42,270 nucleotides of DNA. Source: a bacterium (GTDB lineage: Bacteria > Zhuqueibacterota > Zhuqueibacteria > Residuimicrobiales > Krinioviventaceae). This document shows, piece by piece, positions 1,698-32,783 of this stretch. Location of the stretch: assembly GCA_963674595.2 (NCBI GenBank), contig CAXXFV010000028.1:1-42270 (forward strand), given 5' to 3'. The notes below the pieces were generated by a model. It searched no databases. It was not told where the DNA came from and was given only the letters and a program-made list of their open reading frames with translations. Position 1 is the stretch's first letter; each line of letters begins with the position of its first letter. The position numbers and the translations under genes are program-made.

Positions 1698-1706
1698 GAG
1701 GTTTAA

Positions 1707-3302: not shown

Positions 3303-3362
3303 TTTATCCCTTTTAATTCGTTTTTTGATTGCTGAGCCAGGACATATAGCTATGAGGATATT

Positions 3363-9450: not shown

Positions 9451-10682
9451 ATAACTTCCATCTTTTCATTTTCGAATATTTTCAGGGCACCCGGAAACGG
9501 TCGTAACGCGCGCTCAAATATTCCCAGTGAATAAGCGATAGCCAGGCCATAATTTGTAATCGGCACACCTGCTTCCCGGCATTGATGAATTCTGGTTAAT
9601 ACTAATTTTCGGTTAAACATACAGGCTCCGCAGTGGATAACCAGGTTATAGTCGGAAAGGTTTTGGGGGAAATCGCGCCCCTGGTAAACGTCGAAATTTA
9701 ATTTTCCGCCTGTATATTGCGTCAGCCAGTTTGGAATTTTTACCCGGCCGATATCATCGCCGATCGGGTGATGTGTGCAAGATTCCGCGATAAGGACCCT
9801 GTCGCCCGGCTGCAAATTTTCTATCTTAACCGCGCCTTTTACCATTTCCTGCAAATCTCCCTGATGACGCGCAAAAAGTGTTGAAAAGGATGTCATGAGA
9901 ATATGTTCAGGTGTGTCTTGAGCAACTTTTTGAAACGCTTGAGAGTCCGTAACAACCAGACGAGGTGTTACTTTTAACATGTTGATGGCTTTTTTGAGTT
10001 CGTTTTCTTTAACGACCACTGAAAGTGCGTTATGGTCTAAAAGATCACGAATGGTCCTCACTTGCGGCAGAATGATTCGTCCTTTGGGTGCTTCTTTGTC
10101 AATAGGCACCACAAGAATGACGGTATCTCCGGGTGAAACGAGATCACTGATCAACGGTGGATTGTTTATAATATCATCCGGGGCTGCTTCGAAAATGGCC
10201 TTTCGAAGTTCATCCAAGCCGGTTTTTAATATTGTACTGGTTTCTACAATTTTGTGATTTATTTTCAGTTCTTTTAAAACAAGTTTATATGACGGGTTTT
10301 TATCTGTTTTGTTAAAAACAATAATAACAGGTATATTGTATTTTTTAAAATTTTCCAAAAGTTTGTTTTCAAATTCACCGAATAAGTGCGACTCTGTTAC
10401 CAGAACAGCAATGTCTGTTCGTTCAATGGCCTGGCGGGTTTTGGCAATTCTCATTTCACCTAATGCTCCGCTATCGTCTATACCGGCCGTATCGATAAAA
10501 AGAATCGGGCCAAGGGGTAGCAGTTCCATGGGCTTTTCAACCGGGTCTGTTGTTGTTCCGGCATGTTGTGAAACAATCGATACATTTTGACGTGTCAGCG
10601 CATTGAGTAAACTTGATTTTCCGACATTTCGTCGGCCAAACAGGCCTATATGGCATCTCATACTTTTTGGTGTTCGTTCCAA
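9447..10682 (-). CDS. hydF: [FeFe]-hydrogenase maturation GTPase HydF
   Basis: GRRNVGKS, DTAG, NKTD GTPase motifs; CTHH...HCGAC FeS ligands; start re-called at TTG 10682 preceded by GGAG (ORF track starts at 10781). Confidence 0.93.
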   Translation of the reverse strand: MERTPKSMRCHIGLFGRRNVGKSSLLNALTRQNVSIVSQHAGTTTDPVEKPMELLPLGPILFIDTAGIDDSGALGEMRIAKTRQAIERTDIAVLVTESHLFGEFENKLLENFKKYNIPVIIVFNKTDKNPSYKLVLKELKINHKIVETSTILKTGLDELRKAIFEAAPDDIINNPPLISDLVSPGDTVILVVPIDKEAPKGRIILPQVRTIRDLLDHNALSVVVKENELKKAINMLKVTPRLVVTDSQAFQKVAQDTPEHILMTSFSTLFARHQGDLQEMVKGAVKIENLQPGDRVLIAESCTHHPIGDDIGRVKIPNWLTQYTGGKLNFDVYQGRDFPQNLSDYNLVIHCGACMFNRKLVLTRIHQCREAGVPITNYGLAIAYSLGIFERALRPFPGALKIFENEKMEVI

Positions 10683-10793
10683 ACCTGGCTCCTTTTTTGT
10701 ATGTAAAGATTCTAGTTTTTTTGAATTTTTACAGCTTTTAACAGGGCCAACGATTTTTTTAATAACTGTTAAAAAAATCAAGCTCTATTTTTA

Positions 10794-12197
10794 TCAACAA
10801 TAAACGTCGCGTTTTCCTGATTTTACCAGGTTTACCAGTTTTTCACTGCGAATTTTTGCTGTAGCACCCATGTTGTTTAAAATGGTGTTGATTAGCTTTT
10901 CACCGACAGATCTCGTGCTGTCAGATGCATAATCTAAAAGGTATTCCGTAAAAGTAGAAAGAGCATTGGGATCACAATGGTTTTTTATTTCTCCGGGTTT
11001 TGCCAGATCCATGAAATCCTGGCCGGTCCTGCCCAACCGGTAACAACCGGTACAAAATGACGGAATAAATCCGAGTTGAGTAATATCGTTAATTACTTCA
11101 TCAAGCGGTCTGTGATCACCCAGAGAAAACTGGCTGTCATCTTCCGCATCTTCATTATATCCCCCGGGATTTGTGCGGCTGCCTGCTGAAATTTGCGAAA
11201 CGCCTAATTCCAGTGTTTCCCGCCGCATTTGCGGTGTTTCACGCGTTGACATGATAATACCGGTATAAGGTACGGCCAGCCGGAGAATCGCTACAATTTT
11301 TTTAAAATCCTGGTCTGATACGGCATAAGGGGGATTTGCTGCTGTATCCGAACCGCTTGCCGGTTCTATTCTGGGGACGCTTATGGTATGAGGACCAACA
11401 CCGAATTTGTTCTCCAAATGGCGGATGTGCTGTATCATAGCCAGAATTTCAAATTTCCAGTTATAAAGCCCAAACAGAACGCCGATACCCACATCATCAA
11501 TGCCTGCCTGCATGGCCCTGTCCATAGCATTTATGCGCCATTCATAGTTTGATTTTTGACCGGCAAGATGGACCCGGGCATAGGTTTCCCGGTGATATGT
11601 CTCCTGAAACAGTTGATATGTGCCGATCCCTTTTTGTTTTAACAGTCGAAATTCTGTAACAGATAATGGGGCTATGTTTACATTTACCCGGCGAATTTCA
11701 CCGTTATTTACTTTGGTTTTATAAATTGTGTCAATGGAATTGAGATAATATTCGAAATTTTGACGCGGGGGAAAAGCTTCACCTGCCACCAGCAACACCC
11801 TTTTATGTCCCTGTTGGACCAGTGTACGTATTTCCTTAGAAATTTGATCCTGATCTAAATAGCACCGGTTAATGTTTTTATTTTTTGCCCGAAAGGCACA
11901 ATAAGTACATTCGTTATGACAAAGATTTGAAATATATAACGGGGCAAAAAGGACAAGCCGTTTCCCGTAAATTGTTTCTTTAACAAATTTTGCCGTATTA
12001 TAGAGCTCTTCCAGCAATTCTTTGGACGTTTCAGCCATTAGAACGGCAATGTCTTTTTCATCCAGTCCCTGCATCTCTCTGGCTTTTGCCAGTGTTTTAC
12101 GGACCTGAATGATGCCTGGATGTTGATTAGATTGAATTGTTTGATGAATTTTTTGTTCGTCAATTATTACGGCAGGTTCCGTCGTTGTTTCCAGCAT
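10794..12197 (-). CDS. hydG: [FeFe]-hydrogenase radical SAM maturase HydG
   Basis: LFAPLYISNLCHNECTYC; YQLFQETYH; C-terminal CX2CX22C (CTGC...HC) auxiliary cluster motif distinguishing it from ThiH. Confidence 0.95.
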   Translation of the reverse strand: MLETTTEPAVIIDEQKIHQTIQSNQHPGIIQVRKTLAKAREMQGLDEKDIAVLMAETSKELLEELYNTAKFVKETIYGKRLVLFAPLYISNLCHNECTYCAFRAKNKNINRCYLDQDQISKEIRTLVQQGHKRVLLVAGEAFPPRQNFEYYLNSIDTIYKTKVNNGEIRRVNVNIAPLSVTEFRLLKQKGIGTYQLFQETYHRETYARVHLAGQKSNYEWRINAMDRAMQAGIDDVGIGVLFGLYNWKFEILAMIQHIRHLENKFGVGPHTISVPRIEPASGSDTAANPPYAVSDQDFKKIVAILRLAVPYTGIIMSTRETPQMRRETLELGVSQISAGSRTNPGGYNEDAEDDSQFSLGDHRPLDEVINDITQLGFIPSFCTGCYRLGRTGQDFMDLAKPGEIKNHCDPNALSTFTEYLLDYASDSTRSVGEKLINTILNNMGATAKIRSEKLVNLVKSGKRDVYC

Positions 12198-17884: not shown

Positions 17885-18292
17885 ATGCGAATATTTCTTA
17901 TTAATGACGAAACCATTGTCTTTAAAACGATTTTCTCATTTCTACATCAATTAGGATATTCTCTTCAGGTTTTAAACGCGTCGCAGGAACTTTATTTGCA
18001 TAATCCTGAGCCGGGTGATATAATGATCGTTGATATTCTTGATCTGAATAAAGGCCATTTTGCTTTGCTGAAAAGAGTCACTCAGGAATATTCATTTTTG
18101 AGATTATTGGTTTTAATAGACAAAAAGCCTCCTTTTAATATTGAGGAAGCGTTAAGCTACGGCATTGTTTCTTATTTGCGCAAACCATTATACTTGAATG
18201 AGCTGGAGCTTGTTCTTTATTGGTATCATGAATTTCATGGTTTTAAACAAAGTTCAGGCGACAAACACCGGTCTTTTATTTTTGAAAGTTGA
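17885..18292 (+). CDS. Stand-alone atypical response-regulator receiver domain protein
   Basis: MRIFLINDE, DIMIVD, SYLRKP; conserved Thr/Ser appears replaced; AAGGA RBS. Confidence 0.7.
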   Translation: MRIFLINDETIVFKTIFSFLHQLGYSLQVLNASQELYLHNPEPGDIMIVDILDLNKGHFALLKRVTQEYSFLRLLVLIDKKPPFNIEEALSYGIVSYLRKPLYLNELELVLYWYHEFHGFKQSSGDKHRSFIFES

Positions 18293-18338: not shown

Positions 18339-18752
18339 TTAGCTGACCAAACGTCTTAAACGTTTGGAAAGCATTTTTAGAACGCCCTGGGTTATATTGA
18401 TATGATCTGACAACAGATCATAAAAATCATCACGATCTATTCTTAACAGGTGGGATTCCTGAACGGTTTCGGCTGTCACCAATCGTGGTTCATCATCAAA
18501 CAGCGCCCATGTTCCAAAAACATCTTTTGTTGAGGCAAGCATGACGGTTTGACCTTGCCTGGTTATTTTTATCTGGCCGTCTGTGATCAAATACATGGAA
18601 TCTGCCGGGTCACCCTCTTTAAATATTGTATGTTCTGCGGAGAATGTTAATTCTTCGGTTATGGCTGCAATATGCGACAAGTCTTCTGTTGATGTATGTT
18701 CAAAAATATCTACATCTTGCAAAAATAACACTTTTTCTATAATTGTAAGCAT
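18339..18752 (-). CDS. Cyclic nucleotide-binding domain protein (no HTH)
   Basis: EKVLFLQDVDIF, IFKEGDPADSMYLI, FGTWALFDDEPRLVTA phosphate-binding cassette. Confidence 0.9.
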   Translation of the reverse strand: MLTIIEKVLFLQDVDIFEHTSTEDLSHIAAITEELTFSAEHTIFKEGDPADSMYLITDGQIKITRQGQTVMLASTKDVFGTWALFDDEPRLVTAETVQESHLLRIDRDDFYDLLSDHINITQGVLKMLSKRLRRLVS

Positions 18753-18775: not shown

Positions 18776-21592
18776 TTATTGATTTTTATACTGTTTTAAT
18801 GCCAACCGGGCCGTCTCTTGTATGGACTTGTCCGAATCTGCTATAAAATGTTTCAGCATCCATTCCGGTTCATTACTATTGCGTACGGCCAGTACATATA
18901 AAATACACACTTTGAGCCATCTGTCATCACCCAAAAGTATGTACCGAATGGCTTCCTTTTCGGTTTTCAAGTTTATTTTAAAATGTTTTTGCGTTTGTTC
19001 AAACAGTAACTTTGGTGATTCCTGGTCTATAATTGGAAATAAAAGTTTTTTGAGTTTATTGTCCAGTAAATTGTCTAAAAATTCAATTGCGTTTGCCGAG
19101 ACATTTGTATTGGGACTTTGTAATGCTTTTTGCGCATTTGCTATATCGCCAGGCGGATATTTCAGACTTAATAGTAAAAACAATCTATCCAGATTTTGGT
19201 GTAATTTTTCTTTTATTGCTTTACAAAGCAAAGAATGGGCAATTGTTAATTTATCTTTGTTTTTAGTGTCATTTTTTATGGAATCATCAAATATATTTTT
19301 TATGGTATAAAGAGTGATATAGCTTTCTATTTCCTGAACAATAAAGTTATCTACTTTTTCCGGTCGGAATATCAAGCTTTCAAAATGTGCCCGGAGACGG
19401 GTTAATGCCTTTATAATGTTCGTTCTTAACAACAGATCTTTTTGTTCAATGTGCTTAAAAAGCAGGTCAACGGATTCCTGCAGGTTTATTTGTGATAAAA
19501 CGCGGGGAATTGCCAGTAAAACTTTTCTATTATATTTCTGGTCACTCAATACTTTATCCAGGGCCGGTAATGCAATTTCACCGTTCTGCACAAGCGCTTT
19601 ACGGGCATGGCGTCTAAAATTACTGGTTCCCAAATGTTCGATAAAAAACGGGATAAAACGTTCATCTTTAGTATTGCCCGCATTAATGATTGCCTGTTGG
19701 ACAATGTTAATATTTTTATCATGCAGTAAATTTTCCAGAAATGGGTATAACTTGGCCACCTGTGCCAGACCAATAATTCTGGAAATTGTTTTTTTGAGAA
19801 ATATTATTTCCTGCTCGGTATGTTCTTCTTCTTTACAATACATAAGAAACTGATCAAACAGCTCTATAAAATTTATTGTTTTGCCTGCATCAGTGCTTTC
19901 ATTAATAAAGCTTGCAATGGCAATTATGGCGGCACTCTGGATTTCATAATCTTCATTCTTGACGGATTCAAGTGTAAACTCTTGTCCGTTTTCCCAGTGG
20001 TGTATCATATAAGTAAATGCTGCTATTTTGATTTCAAATGGATGATTGTGTATCATTTCCCGTGCGGTTGACGAAAAATTTTCAGCATCATAAGTATCTA
20101 ATATTTTTAACGTTTCAAGCCGGACAGATTTAGAATGATGTTTTAACAGGTCTTTAAAATAGGGGATAAAATCATCGTTTTTAACATTTTCCAAAAGTTG
20201 TAAACCATATAAAATCTGTTTTTCGTTTTTTCCTTTTAAAATTTTTGTCAGTGTATTAAACAGTGTTGCGTCGTTTATATTTAAGGTCTGATCACTCAGA
20301 TCAATAGAACGTTTTTCCAAAGCAATTCGAAAAGAGTTCAAATATTCATTTTTAATCAGGTAGATGAATAGCAGCCATATTCCAACCAGTACTAGAAGAA
20401 TGATACTGATACTTTGCACGGACAAGTTGAAATAATGCGTTGCTAAAATTAATATTAAACCGCCCAACCCGGTTGCCAGGCTGTCGATAAAAACATCAAT
20501 AAAAGCTTTTGTTTTGTTTTTCATCGAGCTTGGGATGGGAAGCGACAGTAATTCCAGCCCGGATTTATTTATGGATTGTTTAAAACAACCGTCACTGACT
20601 TTGACTAAAACAGCGGACCACAGGGCGGGTTGAAGCAAAATGCAGATGGTGCCGGTTAAAATTCCAACCGGAAGAAAAAACAATGATATGGCAACACCGG
20701 AAACTTTGAGGATTTTACTGGTAAAGAAAACCTGAAAAACAAGAGAAGCGATACTTAGGTTTGAAAGCCAGAAACCAAAAAAAGCGGTAAGCTGGTCCGG
20801 GTCCTGAATTAGTTCCGTAGCGATGGCGCTGTATTGATAATCAACCAGGTTTGCGGCTATAACGCTGATACCGGTTATAGCGGCAAGATAAGCGATGTGT
20901 TTGGATCGAAATAAAAGTTGGATCGTTTTTTCTGAATGATATTTTTGGAACCGTTTTTTTTCATAATTCAGCTTTTCATCGTAATTTTCGCGTCCTTTTT
21001 TATGCCATACTTTTTTTACAATAAAAATACAGGCAATTAAAAAGAAAATGCATATAAACAACATATTTGCCGTACCCAAAATCGGAGCTAAAAATTTGGC
21101 AAGATAACCGCCAAAAATTCCTCCGGAGATACCGCCGGCGCCGATTAAACCGAATATTCTCTTTGCTTCCCGGGCGTTAAAGACGTAATTGGCCAATAAC
21201 CAAAATTGAGACGTTACGATAACACCGAACAGGGCCACCCATATATAAAAAACGTAATAAATCCAGCCTGCCTGAAAGCCTGACATGAGGATAAAGCGGA
21301 ACAAAATTAAACTAACTATAGATATAGCCAGCGTAAAATAAACCAGTTTGTTAAAGCGAAATTTTTTGGATATTTTTGTGTAAAACTGCACAACACCGGC
21401 TGCAGAAACAGCCACAAGTAGAAACGCATAGGGTAACTGTGAGACGCCGTAATGCGATAAAAAAAGTGAGTTCCGGACCGGTTTTATAATAAGTAAAGAG
21501 GCAATAATCAGAAAAAGGTAAAGAAACATTAAAAAGACAATTGTTTTTTCACCTTTTCTGAGATCAAAAATTTTATGTAAATTTTTTTTCAT
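18776..21592 (-). CDS. Npt1/Npt2 (TLC/NTT) nucleotide transporter fused to HEAT repeats
   Basis: About 12 TM N-terminal domain with IIKPVRNSL, FWLLANYVF, NKTKAFIDV; C-terminal HEAT-like helical repeats (LLHDKNINIVQQAI, ANAIEFLDNLL). Confidence 0.85.
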   Translation of the reverse strand: MKKNLHKIFDLRKGEKTIVFLMFLYLFLIIASLLIIKPVRNSLFLSHYGVSQLPYAFLLVAVSAAGVVQFYTKISKKFRFNKLVYFTLAISIVSLILFRFILMSGFQAGWIYYVFYIWVALFGVIVTSQFWLLANYVFNAREAKRIFGLIGAGGISGGIFGGYLAKFLAPILGTANMLFICIFFLIACIFIVKKVWHKKGRENYDEKLNYEKKRFQKYHSEKTIQLLFRSKHIAYLAAITGISVIAANLVDYQYSAIATELIQDPDQLTAFFGFWLSNLSIASLVFQVFFTSKILKVSGVAISLFFLPVGILTGTICILLQPALWSAVLVKVSDGCFKQSINKSGLELLSLPIPSSMKNKTKAFIDVFIDSLATGLGGLILILATHYFNLSVQSISIILLVLVGIWLLFIYLIKNEYLNSFRIALEKRSIDLSDQTLNINDATLFNTLTKILKGKNEKQILYGLQLLENVKNDDFIPYFKDLLKHHSKSVRLETLKILDTYDAENFSSTAREMIHNHPFEIKIAAFTYMIHHWENGQEFTLESVKNEDYEIQSAAIIAIASFINESTDAGKTINFIELFDQFLMYCKEEEHTEQEIIFLKKTISRIIGLAQVAKLYPFLENLLHDKNINIVQQAIINAGNTKDERFIPFFIEHLGTSNFRRHARKALVQNGEIALPALDKVLSDQKYNRKVLLAIPRVLSQINLQESVDLLFKHIEQKDLLLRTNIIKALTRLRAHFESLIFRPEKVDNFIVQEIESYITLYTIKNIFDDSIKNDTKNKDKLTIAHSLLCKAIKEKLHQNLDRLFLLLSLKYPPGDIANAQKALQSPNTNVSANAIEFLDNLLDNKLKKLLFPIIDQESPKLLFEQTQKHFKINLKTEKEAIRYILLGDDRWLKVCILYVLAVRNSNEPEWMLKHFIADSDKSIQETARLALKQYKNQ

Positions 21593-21595
21593 GTA

Positions 21596-23008
21596 TCAAG
21601 CGTTAGATGTCATTTGCTGATTGAGTTTTCCGATCCAAAATGCCAGTACCAGCCATACAAATACCAAACATGCTACAAACAGCGCAAATTGTTTGGTCTC
21701 AAAATTAAGCCATGTTGTGCCGACATAAACCAGTACAGCCGACAAAACATCACCGGCCCGAACAAAAAAGGAATCGATGGCCTGTTTTGCTTTGTATTTT
21801 TGTTCTGTTGTGGTGGGCAAGAACAATACCTGCCGCACAGTGTTTTGTAAAGAATAGTCTATCGAATTTTCAGCGGTTTTGGCCCAGCGTACAATTGAAA
21901 GGATCGGATAAAAAGCGATGATAAAATAACCGCCTAACGCTATAACCGGTAAAAAGAGAATGGCAATGCGAACACCAAAATATTTTAAAATCCTTGAGAC
22001 GATAAAAAGCTGGAACAGGAGAGAAACAATATTCACGATTGTGTAAAAGTCCGCATAAAATTTGCCGATAAAATTGCCGATATATTTTTTTAAATAATCA
22101 TTTTTATACTGTTCGTTGTTTGCAGCATTTGCGGCGTCTGTCGACTGTTGTTTCGCATATTCTTCTGCCTCAGTAATGACTGTTGGATTTTGAGCTTCAA
22201 TTTTGGCTGATCTTTCAATGGTCCTTGCTAATATATATTCTCCGGTGGTATTTACCCAGTTTAGCGTCATCATTAACAAGGCGATGAGTAACAGATAGCG
22301 GGTTTGAAATACCATTTTAAAGGCACCGGTTTTGTTAAACGATTTTTTAGGTTTCTGAGTAAATTCATTTTGATTGGATGCCTTTGTTGGTTTTTCTTTT
22401 GCATCAACAATATTTGTAAAAACAAGGCTGAGCCCCAGCAAGGCACCGGAAAATAATAACAGTTGGTAAACGCCAAGAGGTTCAATTAATTCTCTGGTTA
22501 TGATACCGCCTAAAACAGCCCCTAACGATGCGCCAAAAGCAACAATAACAAATAATCTTTTTCCGGCTTCCGGGGTATAAATGTCATTGGCAAAAGCCCA
22601 GAATTGGGCCGGAACCATAAGGTTAAAAATACCAATCCACAGGAAAAATATTACACCCAGAGGCACCCGTATCAGTGCTAACAGATAAAAAACAACCAGA
22701 CAACCGATAAAGAAAAAAGTAACAGTGTTGATCAGTTTTTTACGATTAAAACGGTTTGCGATCATGCTGTATAATGGAACAGCGCCCAACAGCAATATCG
22801 CCTGACCGGCTGATGCGTAGGCTTTAATTTCTGCTCCGCCGCCGGCTAGGATAAGCGCTTCCCGAACGGGCTTCATTATATAATAGGCGGTAAATATTAA
22901 AAAGATATTGAAAAATAACAAAATAACGGTAAATCCTTCGCCGCCTTTTACTTCTGTAAATAAACCAAGTATGTATTCCAGAATATTTTTTTTCGTTTTT
23001 TGTATCAT
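21596..23008 (-). CDS. Npt1/Npt2 (TLC/NTT) nucleotide transporter
   Basis: YYIMKPVREAL, QFWAFANDIY...GKRLF, ENSIDYSLQNT, KYKAKQAIDSFFVRAGD. Confidence 0.88.
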   Translation of the reverse strand: MIQKTKKNILEYILGLFTEVKGGEGFTVILLFFNIFLIFTAYYIMKPVREALILAGGGAEIKAYASAGQAILLLGAVPLYSMIANRFNRKKLINTVTFFFIGCLVVFYLLALIRVPLGVIFFLWIGIFNLMVPAQFWAFANDIYTPEAGKRLFVIVAFGASLGAVLGGIITRELIEPLGVYQLLLFSGALLGLSLVFTNIVDAKEKPTKASNQNEFTQKPKKSFNKTGAFKMVFQTRYLLLIALLMMTLNWVNTTGEYILARTIERSAKIEAQNPTVITEAEEYAKQQSTDAANAANNEQYKNDYLKKYIGNFIGKFYADFYTIVNIVSLLFQLFIVSRILKYFGVRIAILFLPVIALGGYFIIAFYPILSIVRWAKTAENSIDYSLQNTVRQVLFLPTTTEQKYKAKQAIDSFFVRAGDVLSAVLVYVGTTWLNFETKQFALFVACLVFVWLVLAFWIGKLNQQMTSNA

Positions 23009-23029: not shown

Positions 23030-24706
23030 TTATTCCATCCGCTTCAGGCCTAATATTTCGGGATTTTGATCATATTTAATATAGACAAATAAATCTTTAC
23101 TCCAACCTGTTTTTTCAGATTTTACCTGAATTTGAACAGCTATTTGTTTATTTATATTATTTTTAATTTTTGTCAAACAGTCATTTAATGGTATTTCAGG
23201 ATTTGTTGTTTCTTGCCAATCCTGCAAACATTTGTCTTCCGGAAGGACAAGCAGCCGGTATTTGTAGGATGTATTTTCTTTTGATTCCAGTTGTGATTCT
23301 ATGGCGTAATTTTTATAGGTCAACACATTTTCCATGGCGCCATTTTTCTGGATAGCAAAATCATCGCATGGATTAACAAGAGAAAAACAATATTCACCAA
23401 TTTTCTTTTGTCTTTCAATCAATATTTTTAGCAGAAATGCTGCCGCTTCCGGATCGGTGTAATGCGCTTCGTCGATAGCTGCCTGTAAATGTTCTTTTGT
23501 AAAGGCCATAATAATTCGAGCCGCCCAGAAAGCGTCATTAGCTGTCATATATTCAAAAGCAGGGTTCGGCACCTGTGGTTTGTATTTTATCGGGTTAAAC
23601 AGTTCCGATTCAATAAACCCAATCGACGGATACTGCACGCCGTCTTGTTTTTCCCAGGGACGGACATAAAGGCCCAAGGTTACGGCATTGCCCAGCAAAA
23701 CACCCGGATCAACATCGTGTTCGTGACCGCGCCAAAGCGTATTGGGACTGTGTGAAGCGCTGCCGAGAGTTGCTCCAAAATCAATTAAAAAATGTTTAAC
23801 AAAACTTTTACCATTTTCAGTTACATAAGAATCCAGCGAATTGCCGTCTTTGGTGTCAAAATGGTTCAGCCAGGCGGTAAGAAGCCGCAATCCCCGCAGT
23901 TCTCTGCGGTGCTGGTGCGGGATAAAATCGTTAAAATCGTCTTTACGAATTCCCCGGTAGCGAAACGGGCCCAATATTTTCCCGGAAATATATTTACTTG
24001 CCAGGGCCCTTATTTTACCGTTTTCACCAACTTCAACACGTTGTAAAATAGTTGCAAGATCGGTTTCATTCATAAAACGTTTTCGGCCTTTTTCATCTGT
24101 AAATTTAACCTTGCTGCCCATTTTTAATTTGGACGGATCAAAAAATACCACATAGTTTTCAGGTGTATTATAGCCGGCTGCATAGAAAAGTTTAGTAGAA
24201 ACAACCTCCGCACCGGAAGCCAGTTCGGAATATCCCGGCGGATCGAATTTAATTACATAGCTGGTACCATTTTTGTCTTTTATACTGAATCCGGGGGTAA
24301 CTCCCTGGGCTTTTGCACGGGTGATTATCCAGACATCTGAGGTGTCCGGTCCTGTTCCTGAATCCGGTCCTTTTTGCGTATCCTGAACATCAAAGTTTGT
24401 AAAACCAATCCGATTGGTAAACCAGGATGAATTTGGAACGCGTCCAAAGGCATCGATGTTTTTTGCCTGTTTCGGATCGCCGCTGATTTTTCTAAACTGA
24501 CGGGAAAAATCAAGAGACTCGTCAATTTGCCGGATAATTTGTTTTTCGAAATATTCAGCAAAAGCATTAATTTCATTTGATTCCGGTTTGGGCACATTGT
24601 TTTGGTCACCGGGAATCGGTTCCGGCGGCTGATAAAGTTTGGACCCTGCCAAAGATGTATTATAAATAATGAATAGTAAAAATATTATATAGACTGACTT
24701 TTTCAC
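23030..24706 (-). CDS. Secreted hypothetical protein with protein-kinase-like fold
   Basis: Signal peptide; Gly-loop-like QGVTPG, YVIKFD lysine, AEVV helix-C Glu, catalytic HFDTKDGN, LIDFG. Confidence 0.7.
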   Translation of the reverse strand: MKKSVYIIFLLFIIYNTSLAGSKLYQPPEPIPGDQNNVPKPESNEINAFAEYFEKQIIRQIDESLDFSRQFRKISGDPKQAKNIDAFGRVPNSSWFTNRIGFTNFDVQDTQKGPDSGTGPDTSDVWIITRAKAQGVTPGFSIKDKNGTSYVIKFDPPGYSELASGAEVVSTKLFYAAGYNTPENYVVFFDPSKLKMGSKVKFTDEKGRKRFMNETDLATILQRVEVGENGKIRALASKYISGKILGPFRYRGIRKDDFNDFIPHQHRRELRGLRLLTAWLNHFDTKDGNSLDSYVTENGKSFVKHFLIDFGATLGSASHSPNTLWRGHEHDVDPGVLLGNAVTLGLYVRPWEKQDGVQYPSIGFIESELFNPIKYKPQVPNPAFEYMTANDAFWAARIIMAFTKEHLQAAIDEAHYTDPEAAAFLLKILIERQKKIGEYCFSLVNPCDDFAIQKNGAMENVLTYKNYAIESQLESKENTSYKYRLLVLPEDKCLQDWQETTNPEIPLNDCLTKIKNNINKQIAVQIQVKSEKTGWSKDLFVYIKYDQNPEILGLKRME

Positions 24707-24718
24707 TTTTTTATGTCC

Positions 24719-26026
24719 TTAGTTTAATTTAAAAAGTAGTCGAAATCCGTCATCGCTTCTGCCGATTTCCAGACGTGTGATGAGACTTGAATCTGTGTAA
24801 ATACGGATGCCTGTTCCATAGGTGATCTGAAGATCATCCGTGTTTAAATGTGTGGATAAGCGTTCGGATACTTTACCGGCATCCGTAAACACCAGCGCAT
24901 CAATATGGCGGGTTAATGGAAACCTATATTCCGCCGAACCGAGGATAAAGTCTCTGTCATGGAACCGGCCCCGCAGAAATCCCCGAATAGAGTCGTCATT
25001 TCCAAGTTCTGCCAGATAGTAAAAGGGGATCGTTCTGTCGGATAAATTTTGTGTAACCTCAAAAGCCGCTCTCAATACAAGGACGCGGTTATAAAAAAGA
25101 TGAATATACTGTTTTACGTCGGCGGAATATTTTGTGAATCCAAATTCCGAACCGTTGGTTTGTTTAAAAATACTGCCGTTTAAAAACAGTTCCGTCCCGG
25201 ATGTCGGATTACCTTGTCGGTTTTTTGAATCGTACTCAATCTCTGTTTTTATAAAATTAAAATCAACGGTTTCACATAACCCTGGAATGATGGAACCGAA
25301 GGCCGCCGGTCTGGCAATAGTGTCTGTTAACGACGGACTGTCATCATCTGATCCGGATTTGATTTTGTTTCTTTCATATCCCAGCCGAAAATTGGTGAGT
25401 AAATTTTCGTGAAGGGCCAGGCCGATAGCTCCGTTAAAACAGGTTTTTTCGTGCCCGTAGCCTGATTCATGCTCTTTTAGTGAAGTCGGACCCATTCCGT
25501 AAAAATGTTCATTGGCAATAAACTGGGAATACATATCCAGGTCACCTTGCAGGTTCCCGTATATTTTTATTCTGCTGAATTTCATTTGAACATTTTTACT
25601 TTTTTTAGGGCCTGCTGTTAATGTTATTTTAAGCTTTGACCCCGGATTAATCAAGTCTTTTTGATAGAAATTTATACCCGCGCCGGTACGGGATGCATAA
25701 GTTGGTGTAACTCCCCGCAGGCCATCATCTGATGTTAAAAAATCTTTAACCCTCGGCCCGATTTTGCTTTCATCGTATATTTTAATTCCCTGCTTTACAC
25801 CGCTAAGGGTGAAATCAATGGGTATAAAAACAACCTTGCCCGGGAATGAAACTATTTTTTCAATTGTACTTTTTGATTTAAACCTTTTTCTAAGGATTTT
25901 TACCTGTTCTTCATCTATCTCTTTTTGTTCCTGTGCTATGGAATATTTGGGCATACCGGCAACTATGCAGAGCAAAAGGGGGATAAAGAGATATTTTTTT
26001 ATATTTTTAAAACTTTTGAGGTGCAA
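24719..26026 (-). CDS. Omp85 (BamA/TamA-family) outer membrane beta-barrel, apparently without POTRA domains
   Basis: Signal peptide; YDSKNRQGNPTSG, IPFYYLAELG, IRGFLRGRFHDRD loop-6 motif, SAEYRFP, YGTGIRI; only 435 aa. Confidence 0.85.
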   Translation of the reverse strand: MHLKSFKNIKKYLFIPLLLCIVAGMPKYSIAQEQKEIDEEQVKILRKRFKSKSTIEKIVSFPGKVVFIPIDFTLSGVKQGIKIYDESKIGPRVKDFLTSDDGLRGVTPTYASRTGAGINFYQKDLINPGSKLKITLTAGPKKSKNVQMKFSRIKIYGNLQGDLDMYSQFIANEHFYGMGPTSLKEHESGYGHEKTCFNGAIGLALHENLLTNFRLGYERNKIKSGSDDDSPSLTDTIARPAAFGSIIPGLCETVDFNFIKTEIEYDSKNRQGNPTSGTELFLNGSIFKQTNGSEFGFTKYSADVKQYIHLFYNRVLVLRAAFEVTQNLSDRTIPFYYLAELGNDDSIRGFLRGRFHDRDFILGSAEYRFPLTRHIDALVFTDAGKVSERLSTHLNTDDLQITYGTGIRIYTDSSLITRLEIGRSDDGFRLLFKLN

Positions 26027-26061: not shown

Positions 26062-26982
26062 TTAAAATTTAAAACTTAAACCTGCTATAGCAGTATTGTT
26101 TTGATATGAGAGTGTCGGCTTTACTCTTTTATTTTCATGAATTTTTAATATTGTTCTTGAAATAGCTGTGCCATAAACGGCGGCCAGAAATACATCTGAA
26201 GGCCAGTGACTGTTGGAATCGATTCGCTGCAGGCAAACAGATGTAGCAATGGTGTAAGCCGCAACCGAAAAAAGCTTACAGTTTACATGATAGGACAAAA
26301 TGGTTGCCAACTGAAATATTGTCGATGCATGGCCGGATGGGAAAGACGATCCTTCATTATATTCAAAAGAGTAGGGCCCCTTTCTTTCATAGGGTCGGGC
26401 ACGGCCTACCAATATATTGGCCAGGTTTTTAAAACCTCCGGCAATAAAATGTGATTCCAGTATTTGTGCTGATATTCGAGTCAGTTTATTTATGTTGAAA
26501 ATGTATCCGACTGCCAGTCCAGCGAAATAAAATCTGTTCGTATAACCCATATAACCGATAGGCTCGAAATAATTACCCATATCCATAAAACGTGAATAGA
26601 TTTTGTTTTCATGATGCCTGTGAAGCTGGGTAAAAATTTTATCCTCGTTTTTATATAGAAAAATTGAAACAGCCGTTATTCCCCCAAGGTATAGTGCCTG
26701 TTTGCGGTTTATGGAAAAAGGTGATTTTGTAATTGTCCATGTATCTTTAACATATGTTGTTACGGCAAATTTAAAATCGGATGCCGCTTTACGTGGAAAG
26801 CATTTTTGGTCGCTTTGGTCTGTTTCATGATTCATCAAACCGGGACTGGAATAATGTAATGGTTTTGAAAATACCGGCTTGTTAAATTTTATTGAATTAT
26901 TGTTATCAATTGTATTGGAATAAACCGGTTGATAAATAATTGAAATAAGATTAGACAAGATAATTAATAATAGTATTTTCAC
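26062..26982 (-). CDS. PAP2-superfamily phosphatase with signal peptide
   Basis: C1 K...GRARP, C2 SFPSGH, C3 QRIDSNSHWPSD; N-terminal signal peptide; C-terminus AIAGLSFKF. Confidence 0.88.
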   Translation of the reverse strand: MKILLLIILSNLISIIYQPVYSNTIDNNNSIKFNKPVFSKPLHYSSPGLMNHETDQSDQKCFPRKAASDFKFAVTTYVKDTWTITKSPFSINRKQALYLGGITAVSIFLYKNEDKIFTQLHRHHENKIYSRFMDMGNYFEPIGYMGYTNRFYFAGLAVGYIFNINKLTRISAQILESHFIAGGFKNLANILVGRARPYERKGPYSFEYNEGSSFPSGHASTIFQLATILSYHVNCKLFSVAAYTIATSVCLQRIDSNSHWPSDVFLAAVYGTAISRTILKIHENKRVKPTLSYQNNTAIAGLSFKF

Positions 26983-27009: not shown

Positions 27010-28198
27010 CTATTTAACTTTTAACAACAGACCCTTTAAATAGAGCCCTTCCGGAAAATTGGTTGAGACACAATGGTCAGGGGCCTGCCATAAACGGTCC
27101 ATAATGACGGCGTCTCTTTTAGCATCAATAGCGGCATCGGCAATGATTTTGTTGAATAGACTGGGAACAACATGCCCGGAGCAGGAAAAGGTGAATAATA
27201 AGCCACCCGGCTTTAAAAGTTTCATGGCTAAAAGATTAATGTCTTTATACCCTCTGCTGCCCTTTATAAGTTGTTTTGCGGAGGCAACAAATTTTGGCGG
27301 ATCCAGTACGATGACATCAAATTGCCGGCTGGTATCGCGGAAATGACGCAGCACCTTAAAGACATCGTCCTGTATAAATTCGTTTTTCCCGGAATTAAAT
27401 TTGTTAAGATCAATATTGTCTTTGCATAAAGACAATGCCTGGGCCGATGAGTCAATATGCACCACATTTTCGGCTTGCCCGGTATGGGCGTAAACACCAA
27501 AACCACCGGTATAAGAAAAAACAGTTTAAAACATCGGCGCCTTTAACATAATTTGCCAAAATTTTTCTGTTACTGCGCTGGTCCAGATAAAATCCGGTTT
27601 TGTTGCCGTTTTTTATATCCACCAGAAATGATATATTATTTTCCTTTATTTCAACCACATCCGGGGGTGTTTGTCCCCAGATGACACCGGCCGCCGGTTC
27701 AAGTCCTTCTTTTTTACGCACATCAATATCCGACCGTTCATAGATACCCTTAGGTTTGAGCATGTCTGTCAATTGTTCTACAATTGTTTCTTTGTAATAT
27801 TCCACACCGGAAGATAAAAACTGACAGACGAGAAAATCATTGTATTTATCAACTAAAAGACCCGGCAGGCCGTCGGATTCGGCATTCACAAGTCGGTATG
27901 CTGTGGTTTGGTCCAAATCCGGTAATATTTGTCTATATTGAACGGCTTGTTGTAATTTTTTTCTAAAAAAATCAGCGTCTATATTTTCCTGTTCATCGTA
28001 AGACCATATACGGCTTTGAATTTGAGATTGCGGTGAAAAATTGCCATAGGCCAAAAAATCATTATTGTGTGCAACAATTCGCACTGTTTCGCCACTTTGT
28101 ATACCATCATCCTTTTTTTGTATGGCGCCGCTGAATATCCACGGGTGACGACGTAAAACAGAGTCTTGTCTGTTTTTTTTGATAAAAATTGTTTTCAT
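27010..28198 (-). CDS. rlmI: 23S rRNA m5C1962 methyltransferase RlmI-like (one apparent +1 frameshift at ~27516-27521)
   Basis: PUA RRHPWIFSG, ESDGLPGL, KTGFYLDQR, DPPKF, PEGLYLK; removing one T restores LNCFSYTGGF. Confidence 0.88.
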
Positions 28199-28211
28199 AT
28201 ATTTACTTTTC

Positions 28212-31200
28212 TCAATGTTTGTTAATTGTGTTTTCATCCAGATCAGCCGGAAAAACTAAAGTAAAGGTTGTGCCGGTACCGACCTCACTGTCGACAAGAA
28301 TCTCACCTTTGTGATCTTGCATAATCTGGTAACAAATTGATAATCCCAACCCTGTTCCCACACCGACTCCTTTTGTTGTAAATCCGGGGTCAAAAATTTT
28401 CGAAAGGTGTTCGGGCGGAATGCCTTTGCCGTTATCCCGGATTTTTATATATACTTTATTCCCCAGGATAAAAGTAGTAATCTCAATTTCTCCTTTATCA
28501 GCTATCGCCTGTTTGGCGTTAACGAGCAGGTTGAGTATCACCTGGTTTAAGCGGCCCGGAAAACAGGAAATCTGCGGCAGGGGTCCATAATTGGTTTTTA
28601 CTTTAATATGATGTTTAATTTCGTGATGGATAATTGTTAAAGTATCTTCTATTCCTTCATTAATATCTGCTTTTTTCAGTTCAGCTTCATCCAGCCGGGC
28701 AAAGCTTCTGAGTCTTTTTACAATGTTGGTTACCCGTTCCGTACCGGACTTTATGACTCTGTTGGCATCATCAATGATATTAAAAGATGTCTGCATGGTT
28801 TTATTGTTAAAAAACTCGGCATTCTGGCTCATGATTTCATTCTTGATCTTTTCGATTGCTTTGATGGAGGTTTGCTGCATACTGTTAACGGCCCCAACCG
28901 GTGTATTGATTTCATGAGCAATCCCGGCTACCAGCATACCCAGCGCTGCCATTTTTTCGGATTGTACCAGCTTTGTGTGAGTGTCATGAAGTTCCTTGTT
29001 GGCGGCTTCCAGATTTTCAACCATGTTTTTCATGTCGGTAATGTCATGACCAATACCGATATTGTCTATAATTTCACCTTCATTATTAACGATGGAGGTC
29101 GTATGTGAAATAAACCATCTCCATGAGCCGTCTTTATGTTTTATACGATAATCAAATTCTTTATCTTTTTTACTAATAGGTTGTGTAAAGTGCTTGTTAA
29201 TTTTGCTTTGATCAATTGGATAGATTAAATCGGTAAATTTTTTCCCAATAAATTCAGCAACTTCATATCCTGTTGATGCTTTAAACTGCGGCGATAAATA
29301 TGTAAACTCACCTTTTGAATTAACCGAATAGATAATATCATGGGCGTTTTCGACAAGTGAACGGAATCTTTCTTCACTTAATTTTAAAGCATCTTCCGCT
29401 TTTCTTTTAACAAGAAAACTGCCGATCATATCTGCTGCTGTTCTTAATAATAAAATATCATCCGGCAGCCATGTTGCATCACTTTCCATATAATCAAATC
29501 CGATATAACCATACCATTGATCTGATATCCATATTGGTATAATTAACATCGATTTTATACCCTGGGTCTGCAAAACTTTTTTTTCAATTTCCGGGAAATC
29601 GGAAATATCACCGGCTATCGGTTCGTTTTTTTGTAGTTTTTCTATCCATCTGTTAAAATGTGGTCCATAGGGACGGTGTTCAAGTTCTTCAGTCCCTAAA
29701 AGTGATGGTAACGATTTTCCATGGGCTTCATATTTCAAACGCATGTGCAGCGTTTCGTCCATAAAATTTTCAAAAATATAAGCCCTGTCTGTTTGTGCCG
29801 CCTTGCGAAGTTCTTTTAACGCTGTGGATATTGCCGTATCGGTATCATCTATATTCAGCAACGCTCTGGAACAGGTTGCAAGGCCTTCTTCATATTTTAA
29901 TTTTTTTGCAAGATTTTTTTCAGCCAGTGTACGTTCTTTAATTTCACCTTTTAAAGAATCGTTTACAGTTGCTAATTCATGAGTTCGTTCCTGTACCCGT
30001 TTTTCCAACAGCTCTTTTGCTTTTTCCAGAGCTGCCTGTGCTCTTTTTTGTTCCGTAATATCGCGAACAATTGCCAGGGTTTCATCCGTACCGCTGATTA
30101 CAATTCTGGCTTCATAATCATAGAGATTATTATTTATCGTTAACTGGAATTCAAAAATCTGGGTTTCACCGAGTCTTAATGTCCTTCGGATAGCTTTAAG
30201 CGCTTTTTTTGAAATATGTTCCGGCAGAATTGCAAAGATACTTTTGTTAATGACCATTTCAGCGGAAATTGAAAAGTTATTATCCTTAGGTACATGATAA
30301 TCTATTATTTCTCCTTTTTTATTAATACGAAACATCACATCGGGAATGGCATTTAATATCGCTTTTTTCTGTGTTTCGCTTTTACGGAGCGCATTTTCTG
30401 TTTGCATCCGCTCAATTATTTCTTCCTTTAATGCCTCGTTCAAATCTGCCAGATCCTGGGTTCGTTCTTTTACCCTAATTTCCAGTTCGTCATGGGCCCT
30501 TTTCAGTTTTTCTTCTGCTTCTTTGCGGGACGTGTTATCTCTGCCGATACCGACAAATTTTTCAATTTCGTCGTTTTCATTTTTTAAAGGAAATAATGAA
30601 AGGTCAATATATAAGGTCTTATTGTTTTCTGTTTTTAGTTCAAATTCATGGCGGATACGGGTTTGTTTTGGTTTGTTTTTGAAAAAATTGTCAATTCCAT
30701 CAGAATTGATTAGCTTGTAAACAGGGTATTCTGCTATATCTTTGTCTGACATACCGCTGTATTTTTTATGGGTTGGATTCCGTTCGATTATATAGCCGTC
30801 TTTATTTAAAACGACAATAGAGTCGTTCGAGTTTAAGAATATTTCTCTGTATAGTCTTAAACTTTCTTCCAGTTTTTTACGAACGGTGATATCGATGCCT
30901 GTGGCTACAATAAATTCAACATTTCCATCCGCATCATACAAAGCCGTATTTGACCATGTAATAAGACGGGGGAGTCCCTCGTTATCAATAAGAGCACTCT
31001 CTGAAATATATGGTGTTTGATTTGGAGAAAGACCTTGAAACAATGTTTTTAACTCATCACATTGTTCTGCAACACAAAATAAATCCCAGGGTTTTTTGCC
31101 GATCACTTTTGATGGTTTTTTACCAGTGAGGTTTTGACAGGCGCGGTTGAATCGAATGATGTTTGAATGAGAATCCAGTACCATAATGAGCGCACCGGAT

Positions 31201-32783
31201 GTTTCCAGAATAGCATCTATAAAATTTCGCTCTTTTTTTAGTGCTTGTTCTGCTTTGCGGCGGATGCTGATATCATAAAATGCATTGATCCATACTGTAT
31301 TTCCGTCTATTTCTGTTTTAACTATAGAGTTTAATACCCAGTGTTTTTCACCCGTAAGGGATTCTATTTCCAATTCATAATTTAAAACTTGTTCGTTATG
31401 TGTTAATTGTTCTTTAATAGAATGATAGTCATGTGATTTTGCATAAAAATTTTGAATGTCCTGCCCAATTAAATTTTCCGGATTATTATTTAATAGAGTA
31501 GACATGGGTTTGTTGACAAACAAAATTTTACCATCTATTTCCCGGTTAATGACATAAGGTATTGGAGAAACTTTAACGATTGCCCGTAACTGTTCGTTTG
31601 CTTCTTTTATTCTGGTAACATCAAAAAATGACCATAAGAATCCGGCGGTGTTATTATCTTTTTTTATGGGCATACAAAAAACCGACACAAATTTTTCTAT
31701 CGATTTTTTTGTTTTTAAAACCCGGGTATATAATTTATCAAAATCGATGTCTTTTTCACTAAATTCATCAGGTTGTTGTTTTAATTCCTGGATGATATTT
31801 ATAAATTGATCTTTATCCTGAAAGATATTTGCAACGTTATCGATTAAATTGGAAAATGGTGTTTGTAATACCTTATTTTTATCGATCTGGAACAGTTCTA
31901 CTGCCTTTTGATTTGCGGCTGTGATTTTATCGTCCGGCCTTACTAAAAGAAGCGCTGAACCGGACAAATCAAATATCGTTAGTAATTCGTCTTTACCTTC
32001 GGACAATTCCTGATTAGCCAACTGTAGTTTTTTATTTGATTTTTTCAGATCATGGATCAATTCGTCGTTATGGTGTTGTTCCTCATTTTCTGTTGCAACC
32101 CCAATGATTTCAGATATTTTTTCATTATCTAAAATATATTTCAGTTTAACTAAAAAATCTTTTATTTTTTCATCTTTGGTAACCAGACGAACATTCAATT
32201 GCGGGACCTTCCGGATTTGTTGAAAAAATACCGTGTCATCCGGATGAATTATGTCTGAGAATGAACGGCCTGTGAGTTCGTCAGGAGTGTAACCCAAAAC
32301 AGATTTAATTGAATTACTGATATTTTTTATTTTTAAAGATTGGTCCAGTGTAAACAAAATATCTGATGAACCGCCTGTTAAAAGCGCTATTGTTTGTAAA
32401 GATTTTTCCAGCTTTTGTTCCAGTATTTTCCTGTCGCTAAATTGTTTAATCGTTGCGACGAGTTGCCCGGTATTAACCGGTTTGACTAAAAAGTGGTCAG
32501 CGCTATTTATGGCAGACTGAGTGGAGAGGTCAGATGTTTCGTCGGGTATTAACAGGATTATTATCGTGTTTGGGGAATGTTTTTTTATTTCTTTCAGTTC
32601 ATTCGTGATTGATTTATTCAATCCAAAAAGAACAATATCTGCTTTTGATGACACAAATTCATTAAAAGCGGTCTGCCAATCCGGGAAAGAAAGAACGTTC
32701 ACATTATGTTTCTCAAGTTCGCCGGACACGTGTTCGCGTTGTGATTTTTCTTTTTCTATGTAAAAAAGGATCATTTTAGTCAT
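28212..32783 (-). CDS. Large cytoplasmic sensor histidine kinase (pseudo-REC, ~7 PAS, GAF, HisKA-HATPase)
   Basis: Repeated PAS/PAC ends, S-helices (RVKERTQDL, RVQERTHEL), GAF (IPIWISDQWYGYIGFD), AGIAHEINTP, GTGLGL. Confidence 0.92.
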   Translation of the reverse strand: MTKMILFYIEKEKSQREHVSGELEKHNVNVLSFPDWQTAFNEFVSSKADIVLFGLNKSITNELKEIKKHSPNTIIILLIPDETSDLSTQSAINSADHFLVKPVNTGQLVATIKQFSDRKILEQKLEKSLQTIALLTGGSSDILFTLDQSLKIKNISNSIKSVLGYTPDELTGRSFSDIIHPDDTVFFQQIRKVPQLNVRLVTKDEKIKDFLVKLKYILDNEKISEIIGVATENEEQHHNDELIHDLKKSNKKLQLANQELSEGKDELLTIFDLSGSALLLVRPDDKITAANQKAVELFQIDKNKVLQTPFSNLIDNVANIFQDKDQFINIIQELKQQPDEFSEKDIDFDKLYTRVLKTKKSIEKFVSVFCMPIKKDNNTAGFLWSFFDVTRIKEANEQLRAIVKVSPIPYVINREIDGKILFVNKPMSTLLNNNPENLIGQDIQNFYAKSHDYHSIKEQLTHNEQVLNYELEIESLTGEKHWVLNSIVKTEIDGNTVWINAFYDISIRRKAEQALKKERNFIDAILETSGALIMVLDSHSNIIRFNRACQNLTGKKPSKVIGKKPWDLFCVAEQCDELKTLFQGLSPNQTPYISESALIDNEGLPRLITWSNTALYDADGNVEFIVATGIDITVRKKLEESLRLYREIFLNSNDSIVVLNKDGYIIERNPTHKKYSGMSDKDIAEYPVYKLINSDGIDNFFKNKPKQTRIRHEFELKTENNKTLYIDLSLFPLKNENDEIEKFVGIGRDNTSRKEAEEKLKRAHDELEIRVKERTQDLADLNEALKEEIIERMQTENALRKSETQKKAILNAIPDVMFRINKKGEIIDYHVPKDNNFSISAEMVINKSIFAILPEHISKKALKAIRRTLRLGETQIFEFQLTINNNLYDYEARIVISGTDETLAIVRDITEQKRAQAALEKAKELLEKRVQERTHELATVNDSLKGEIKERTLAEKNLAKKLKYEEGLATCSRALLNIDDTDTAISTALKELRKAAQTDRAYIFENFMDETLHMRLKYEAHGKSLPSLLGTEELEHRPYGPHFNRWIEKLQKNEPIAGDISDFPEIEKKVLQTQGIKSMLIIPIWISDQWYGYIGFDYMESDATWLPDDILLLRTAADMIGSFLVKRKAEDALKLSEERFRSLVENAHDIIYSVNSKGEFTYLSPQFKASTGYEVAEFIGKKFTDLIYPIDQSKINKHFTQPISKKDKEFDYRIKHKDGSWRWFISHTTSIVNNEGEIIDNIGIGHDITDMKNMVENLEAANKELHDTHTKLVQSEKMAALGMLVAGIAHEINTPVGAVNSMQQTSIKAIEKIKNEIMSQNAEFFNNKTMQTSFNIIDDANRVIKSGTERVTNIVKRLRSFARLDEAELKKADINEGIEDTLTIIHHEIKHHIKVKTNYGPLPQISCFPGRLNQVILNLLVNAKQAIADKGEIEITTFILGNKVYIKIRDNGKGIPPEHLSKIFDPGFTTKGVGVGTGLGLSICYQIMQDHKGEILVDSEVGTGTTFTLVFPADLDENTINKH

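Follow-up and report, generated by a model that had tools for sequence, protein, structure and literature searches.

The 42,270-nt window analysed here, i.e. the whole stretch from position 1 to 42,270 of contig CAXXFV010000028.1 (assembly GCA_963674595.2, a bacterium of the Krinioviventaceae), carries on its minus strand a 558-residue open reading frame (ORF; 23030..24706, GTG start, with AAGGA about 10 nt 5' of it) that very likely encodes an exported protein of the protein-kinase-like (PKL) fold with an intact active site. Considering the protein together with its genomic setting, the best explanation, to which we give a probability of roughly 0.55, is that it is an exported envelope phosphotransferase, paired with an Omp85-family barrel and, in the clade to which the window belongs, possibly fed with ATP by carriers of the NTT type.

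A reading of the window made from the sequence alone (the sequence-only reading) had described this ORF as an exported protein with a complete kinase catalytic core. Every motif string that it quoted is found in the translation, and its coordinates are exact, D-T-K-D-G-N lying at 23840-23857 and DFG at 23774-23782. The elements of the protein are as follows.

24647..24706, minus strand: signal peptide MKKSVYIIFLLFIIYNTSLA, residues 1–20 (MKK, hydrophobic core, TSLA/G), predicted from sequence.
24290..24307, minus strand: glycine-rich loop QGVTPG, residues 134–139, joining the first two strands of the N-lobe (model and alignment).
24248..24250, minus strand: Lys-153, the beta3 lysine (VIKFD; YVIKFD at residues 150–155).
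24206..24208, minus strand: Glu-167, the helix-C glutamate (SELASGAEVV, residues 160–169).
23891..23941, minus strand: family-specific block DDfNDfIPHqHRRELRG, residues 256–272 (alignment).
23840..23863, minus strand: catalytic loop HFDTKDGN, residues 282–289 (Asp-284, Lys-286, Asn-289).
23774..23782, minus strand: DFG, residues 309–311 (LIDFG, residues 307–311), with the presumed metal-binding Asp.
23039..23368, minus strand: C-terminal beta-sandwich domain, residues 447–556, poorly conserved (strands in the AlphaFold2 model).

Structure prediction is decisive for the kinase fold, where sequence methods are blind. The AlphaFold2 model of the full protein (34-sequence alignment) has a mean predicted local distance difference test score (pLDDT) of 90.1 and a predicted template-modelling score (pTM) of 0.90, and that of the core, residues 100–446 (45 sequences), has a pLDDT of 91.7 and a pTM of 0.91. 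Searching the PDB with these models in Foldseek returned, at E ≤ 1e-3, 13 matches for the full model and 61 for the core, with kinases throughout among the matches listed (CtkA, Fam20C/Fam20, CotH, Rio2, actin-fragmin kinase, haspin and PI4KII), and the PKL fold that had been proposed from the order of the motifs is borne out by these matches. In the model the motifs sit on the canonical secondary-structure elements of a kinase: strand 126–132 is followed by the glycine-rich loop at 134–139 and strand 139–143, Lys-153 lies in strand 149–154 and Glu-167 in helix 162–177, and on the C-lobe side helix 268–280 precedes the catalytic loop, after which come strands 290–297 and 300–307 and then Asp-309-Phe-Gly. 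The ESM Atlas, used as a lead only, gives Fam20C as the nearest named cluster (0.81), with HipA_2 at 0.79, PI3/PI4K at 0.79 and CotH at 0.78. For the beta-sandwich domain the Atlas gave no usable match, and Pfam gave one weak CBM_4_9 match among 33 relatives.

In sequence databases the family is nameless, as the sequence-only reading had anticipated: no Pfam or NCBIfam model reaches its cut-off for the kinase protein, and the named database members that were seen are called 'hypothetical protein'. There is no Pkinase (PF00069) match at E ≤ 0.1, which leaves the protein outside the Hanks-type kinases as Pfam defines them, and Pfam likewise gives no match to Fam20C (PF06702), CotH (PF08757) or PI3K/PI4K (PF00454); the gathering score of the HipA family (PF07804/PF20613) is not reached. 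PI4KII-alpha appears in Foldseek only at an E of 4–5e-3 with the full model, and the loop HFDTKDGN differs from DRHxxN, the catalytic-loop motif of PI3K/PI4K. Sub-threshold matches to DUF5481, IDEAL, TrmI-like_N (9/34), CBM_4_9, GOLD and DUF903 are stray and were judged to be noise, an exception being made for matches of HipA_2 and APH to the N-lobe.

The family is large and its catalytic residues are conserved. Among 8000 candidates scored, 4155 proteins belong to it at E ≤ 1e-3, forming 2734 clusters at 50% identity, and a scan of species-representative genomes gave at least 535 stretches with relatives. The diderm phyla named for it are Calditrichota, KSB1, Zixibacteria, Latescibacterota, Marinimicrobia, Ignavibacteria, Acidobacteriota and Gemmatimonadota, among others. 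Across 269 members aligned with MAFFT, whose identity goes down to about 35%, Lys-153 is kept in 263/267, Asp-284 in 264/269, Asn-289 in 261/269 and Asp-309 in 263/268, and position 167 is Glu in 228/268 and Asp in 30/268 (either in 258/268), so that each of these five positions is retained in at least 96% of relatives when Asp at 167 is counted. The two glycines of the loop, Gly-135 (261/266) and Gly-139 (252/266), are kept as well, and position 286 is Lys in 174/269 and Arg in 69/269 (either in 243/269). This conservation of the catalytic set across the alignment argues that the motifs quoted in the sequence-only reading were not a product of chance. Four residues, Asp-257, His-264, Arg-268 and Arg-271, are invariant (269/269 each); they belong to a block, DDxNDxIPHxxRRELRG, just before the catalytic loop, and may form part of a substrate site.

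Four relatives of 985–1163 residues (P0269–P0272) have C-terminal extensions of about 600 residues in which Pfam finds no domain. The one long relative that was aligned to the window protein, P0271 (1151 residues, from an Acidobacteriota genome), has lost Lys-153, Asp-284, Asn-289 and Asp-309 and looks like a pseudokinase offshoot of the family.

The window kinase has a single hydrophobic segment, residues 4–22, between MKK and TSLA/G, predicted to be a Sec-type signal of the plain signal-peptidase-I form. Export signals in the family were tallied over 268 proteins, of which 89 were left out for an incomplete N-terminus (lacking an initial Met, or having under 60 residues ahead of the WFxNR motif). 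Among the 179 complete N-termini, 150 have a hydrophobic region with a Cys a few residues after it at most, i.e. are lipoprotein-like, 25 have a signal without the Cys and four have neither, probably owing to miscalled starts. With an export signal in 175/179, the family is extracytoplasmic and mostly lipid-anchored. The location outside the cytoplasm proposed by the sequence-only reading is thus upheld by its relatives; what that reading lacked is that most relatives are lipoproteins and that the window copy is of the plain signal-peptidase-I type. The lipobox Cys column, at least 90% conserved in the alignment designated A1, aligns with Leu-19 of the window protein.

The gene context, which was likewise absent from the sequence-only reading, begins with the gene 12 nt upstream of the kinase gene.

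24719..26026, minus strand: Omp85-family outer-membrane beta-barrel, 435 residues (Pfam PF01103, E 5e-23, 82.5 bits against a cut-off of 24).

By profile the partner is a BamA/TamA-like barrel (BamA barrel E 1.3e-9), the BamA and TamA equivalog models of NCBIfam score far below cut-off, and Pfam detects no POTRA domain in it. We fetched 80 loci (numbered with the prefix L) out of the stretches with relatives, and of the 72 in which the sequence 5' of the kinase ORF extends for at least 1.3 kb, 69 have an Omp85 gene as the immediate upstream neighbour on the same strand. By script the count was 65; the four further cases (L044, L049, L051 and L064) had been missed through over-extended kinase ORFs, the Omp85 gene ending just before the tblastn match, and 69/72 is therefore the correct figure. 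The true exceptions are L017, where PAP2 is upstream, L063 and L066. Kinase and barrel are also duplicated as a unit: at L043:2512-8659 there are two tandem Omp85-kinase pairs, with kinases 43% and barrels 27% identical. Second kinase copies, tandem or nearby, occur also at L035, L038 and L041. The similarity matrices of kinase and Omp85 correlate with a Spearman coefficient of 0.86 and give the same nearest neighbour in 39/62 loci, which is consistent with co-evolution and is confounded by shared ancestry. We consider it likely that the two proteins are a functional pair.

The remaining genes of the cluster and the signalling gene upstream are as follows.

28212..32783, minus strand: receiver-PAS/GAF hybrid histidine kinase, 1523 residues, upstream (Pfam).
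26062..26982, minus strand: PAP2-superfamily phosphatase, 306 residues (Pfam PAP2, E 1.4e-15).
21596..23008, minus strand: NTT/TLC-type nucleotide carrier homologue, 470 residues, polytopic, 21 nt downstream of the kinase gene (Pfam TLC, 46.5 bits against a cut-off of 21; MFS_1).
18776..21592, minus strand: NTT-HEAT fusion, 938 residues, a TLC carrier domain with C-terminal HEAT repeats (Pfam TLC, 62.2 bits; HEAT_2, E 1.9e-16).
18339..18752, minus strand: cyclic-nucleotide-binding protein, 137 residues, the last gene of the cluster (Pfam cNMP_binding, E 2.9e-20).

From the PAP2 gene through to the gene for the cyclic-nucleotide-binding domain (cNBD) protein the gaps are 35, 12, 21, 3 and 23 nt, and those of 3–23 nt imply co-transcription. 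A scan for promoters and terminators gave no enrichment over shuffled sequence. The TLC domain is PF03219 in both carriers; with TIGR00769 they reach just 39.7 and 34.6 bits against a cut-off of 387 and are therefore distant members of the NTT/TLC family.

Similar arrangements recur elsewhere. At least 6 kb of downstream sequence is available in 56 loci; of these, 29 have NTT carrier genes after the kinase, 19 a metallophosphoesterase gene and 23 a cNBD gene, and profile hidden Markov models specific to the families find, over the 80 loci, a metallophosphoesterase in 24 (always within 3 kb) and a cNBD gene in 31. The cNBD gene comes after the NTT-HEAT gene in other loci too, and a homologue of the histidine kinase is present in 25/80, with the same architecture in L002, L007, L008 and L019. 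The recurrent long form of the locus reads (receiver-PAS-GAF histidine kinase), (PAP2), Omp85, kinase, (metallophosphoesterase), NTT, NTT-HEAT, cNBD, response regulator. The metallophosphoesterases are, to judge by a hydrophobic stretch followed by Cys that was seen by eye in 22/22 examined, also exported lipoproteins. A maximum-likelihood tree was built from 75 kinase cores, leaving out L042, L044, L057, L074, L076 and L077, which are without the anchoring motif; in it the window falls in a clade of seven rows, supported at 99/99, all seven of which are NTT-linked. Linkage to NTT is found in several phyla and forms clusters on the kinase tree (0/500 shuffles as low), a clustering that is expected among kin and is not in itself evidence of co-evolution.

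Some further observations concern this neighbourhood. A 782-residue protein, P0204, is a natural fusion of a kinase-like domain (residues 34–440) with a C-terminal PAP2 domain (644–754, E 4e-13) and mirrors the PAP2-kinase neighbourhood of the window. The histidine kinase gene is separated from PAP2 in the window by two minus-strand ORFs, 27452-28237 (PUA_3) and 27010-27465 (the C-terminal part of an S-adenosylmethionine-dependent methyltransferase), which overlap by 14 nt and have the appearance of a single RlmI-type methyltransferase gene broken by a frameshift; other loci have nothing there. At the other end, a 135-residue ORF on the plus strand (17885-18292), convergent to the cluster, is a degenerate receiver domain (Response_reg, 26.8 bits against a cut-off of 30.2), and other loci have a 160-residue response regulator after the cNBD gene, on the same strand. 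The cNBD protein (18339-18752) is matched by PADLOC models of Pycsar effectors and cyclases (E 1e-7 to 2e-10) in its nucleotide-binding part only, and there is no other defence component near its gene; a defence system was rejected, PADLOC giving no match for the kinase, the Omp85 protein, the NTT carriers or PAP2. Two loci without NTT have a cytoplasmic-type kinase gene one or two genes downstream, an ABC1/UbiB-like gene at L020:9568-10911 and a Hanks-type gene at L074:8440-10077.

On the favoured reading, the mature enzyme would be periplasmic, fixed in most relatives by a lipid anchor that probably sits in the outer membrane beside the Omp85 barrel, and would move the gamma-phosphate of ATP to an envelope substrate. 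This could be a protein, a lipid or a glycan, all of which are allowed by the types of phosphatase found nearby and the Fam20-like similarity; PAP2 enzymes are typically lipid-phosphate phosphatases and metallophosphoesterases are broad. In the window clade the two co-operonic NTT-type carriers would supply the kinase by letting ATP out of the cytoplasm in exchange for ADP from the periplasm, the HEAT and cNBD parts would control the carriers from the cytoplasmic side, and the phosphate would be removed again by the PAP2 phosphatase or, in other genomes, by the lipoprotein metallophosphoesterase. The system would then parallel, in bacteria, Fam20C and other lumenal kinases, for which an ATP/ADP exchanger is a requirement. 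That the protein is an active kinase outside the cytoplasm is moderately probable, and the supply of its ATP by the NTT carriers is put forward tentatively, at somewhat less than even odds. The wider proposal of a dedicated, ATP-dependent periplasmic phosphorylation system in many diderms, comprising cyclic-nucleotide-gated export of ATP by NTT and NTT-HEAT carriers, retrieval of ADP, a kinase anchored to the outer membrane and docked on Omp85, and phosphatases that reverse the reaction, is more doubtful.

Of the known systems closest to this one, the best Foldseek match to the core is CtkA (JHP0940) of Helicobacter pylori (PDB 3akj/3akk/3akl; E 1.8e-6, with TM scores of 0.45 for the query and 0.55 for the target), an atypical Ser/Thr kinase from a bacterium (PMC5536186, in the part of that paper available). 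CtkA is about 280 residues long and 12–14% identical to the window kinase, with no match at the sequence level, and is without the lipoprotein signal, the extension at the N-terminus, the beta-sandwich at the C-terminus and the Omp85 partner; it belongs to a pathogen, where it is linked to a type IV secretion system. Fam20C/Fam20 (PDB 4kqa, 4kqb and 5xom) head the matches to the full model (E 3e-5) and come second for the core (E 2–4e-6), with TM scores of only 0.33–0.45 (0.45 for Hydra Fam20) that fall short of close structural similarity. They share with the present reading a kinase outside the cytosol, in a compartment that must import ATP, and differ in being eukaryotic, Golgi-located and type II membrane or secreted proteins. 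CotH, which acts in spore-coat assembly, is a bacterial atypical PKL kinase (PDB 5jd9) whose similarity is again not close (Foldseek E 1.8e-4, TM 0.41, root-mean-square deviation (r.m.s.d.) 8.4 Å) and which is without Omp85 or NTT context. LpxT, for which the phosphate donor is undecaprenyl pyrophosphate, resembles the window cluster in the PAP2-family neighbour of the latter and differs from the kinase in being a PAP2-fold phosphotransferase and not a kinase-fold enzyme. According to the text available of PMC2229476, this PAP2-family protein phosphorylates lipid A on the periplasmic side in Gram-negative bacteria, and an ATP/ADP exchanger of the endoplasmic reticulum is described, in the available part of PMC6113206, as AXER/SLC35B1. 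For the carriers the precedent is the NTT-HEAT (+cNBD) module, widespread in free-living bacteria and of unknown function according to the accessible text of Major, Embley and Williams 2017 (PMC5381601), whose architecture and gene order are shared exactly by 18776-21592 and 18339-18752 of the window. That text discusses uptake, does not contain the words 'periplasm' and 'export' and makes no link to an exported kinase and an Omp85 gene.

Several observations weigh against the favoured reading. With respect to the fold, phmmer against solved structures gave 0 matches at E ≤ 10, the family profile from A1 gave one meaningless match (E 0.5), and hhalign of A1 against the Hanks kinase of locus L074 gave a probability of 0.15, i.e. 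no similarity, while HipA_2, the one signal that recurs in sequence searches, remains sub-threshold in the 6/34 members in which it is seen (best E 0.004, at most 16.9 bits against a cut-off of 27). The likeness to every solved kinase is modest, with a TM of at most 0.56 and an r.m.s.d. of about 10 Å in Foldseek, which places the protein outside every solved kinase family, and the predicted meeting of the motif residues in one pocket follows from topology only. With respect to location, the window kinase has Leu-Ala-Gly where most relatives carry the lipobox Cys and is thus without the lipoprotein feature. With respect to context, a PAP2 gene is nearby in just 11/80 loci, the kinase-PAP2 fusion is known from a single contig, and NTT is missing from 27/56 loci with enough flank, from which it follows that the kinase is not strictly dependent on an adjacent carrier. 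The NTT carriers that have been characterised import nucleotides (PMC5381601, in the text available), which makes the export of ATP speculative. Activity, use and export of ATP, location and substrate are all things that we infer.

The alternative that survives best, which we nevertheless regard as unlikely, is that the kinase-Omp85 pair is independent of the NTT, NTT-HEAT and cNBD genes, the carriers serving another purpose and the kinase using leaked periplasmic ATP or another donor. The loci without NTT, which include whole paralogous clades, are what this would predict, as is the importing direction of the known NTT carriers (PMC5381601, same text), but it is harder to reconcile with an NTT linkage that recurs across phyla and is clustered on the kinase tree, and with the close spacing that implies co-transcription. 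Furthermore, genome IP29b_bin.73 has both an NTT-linked and an unlinked copy of the kinase (L003 and L039), so that one set of carriers could serve several kinases.

Less probable still is that the Omp85 barrel exports the kinase to the surface or the medium, by two-partner secretion or surface-lipoprotein export, where it would act on molecules of a host, prey, matrix or neighbour, a role that has been proposed for kinases of the CtkA or CotH type. Such a role would fit the near-obligate pairing with Omp85 and the export signals, and also CtkA, the closest match in structure, which the PDB lists as a proinflammatory H. pylori kinase. However, TpsB transporters carry POTRA domains and Pfam detects none in the partner, little ATP is available outside cells in sediments and water, the lineages concerned are environmental and free-living, and carriers in the inner membrane with cytoplasmic cNBD and HEAT regulators fit a periplasmic supply better.

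We consider it improbable that the kinase fold serves another chemistry, e.g. AMPylation or other nucleotidyl transfer as in SelO, or nucleotide sensing, or that the protein is a scaffold for Omp85. Reactions of other kinds are known for PKL folds, long relatives such as P0271 persist without the four catalytic residues, and Asp-257, His-264, Arg-268 and Arg-271 are more conserved than the catalytic residues themselves; yet the full set for phosphotransfer is kept, including the Lys or Arg two residues past the catalytic Asp, and genes for phosphatases (PAP2 and metallophosphoesterase) are recurrent neighbours. Finally, a cytoplasmic HipA-like toxin kinase, to which the HipA_2 lead of the Atlas and the weak HipA_2 matches point (all confined to the N-lobe, about residues 130–200 against profile positions 3–70, with one APH match in the same place), is effectively refuted by the export signals in 175/179 relatives and by the context, where there is no adjacent HipB-like antitoxin, the neighbours are envelope proteins (Omp85, PAP2, NTT) and PADLOC gives no match of note.

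Elsewhere in the window, the minus strand at 8413-12197 holds three adjacent genes with [FeFe]-hydrogenase maturase domains, namely a radical S-adenosylmethionine (SAM) protein (HydE-like), HydF (GTPase, HydF dimer and tetramer domains) and a radical SAM protein with a BATS domain (HydG-like). A complete efflux set of the resistance-nodulation-division type (outer-membrane factor, HlyD-type adaptor and AcrB-type pump) lies on the plus strand at 477-6437, and two minus-strand ORFs, 40462-41043 and 41467-42252, are about 420 nt apart and both encode an M16 peptidase domain at the N-terminus; they could be fragments or two M16 subunits that form a pair.

We found no description of the family, of a periplasmic protein kinase or of the function of NTT-HEAT in the open-access literature searched. 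The fold is known and the family is new, and the genes around it point to an envelope system of a new kind. A large and conserved set of exported proteins with an intact kinase site has genetic ties to a barrel of the outer membrane, to phosphatases and to homologues of ATP/ADP exchangers. As a rule the periplasm is taken to be ATP-free, and envelope phosphorylation is ascribed to other donors, e.g. undecaprenyl pyrophosphate in the case of LpxT. With the reading favoured here, the NTT-HEAT-cNBD module and a subfamily of Omp85 barrels without POTRA domains acquire a first hypothesis as to their function. If a periplasmic ATP system of the kind outlined above is real, it would overturn the assumption that there is no ATP-driven enzymology in the periplasm and would give the orphan NTT-HEAT family its first function, and should lipids, glycans or outer-membrane proteins prove to be what the kinase modifies, the envelope biology of poorly studied phyla would gain a new layer.

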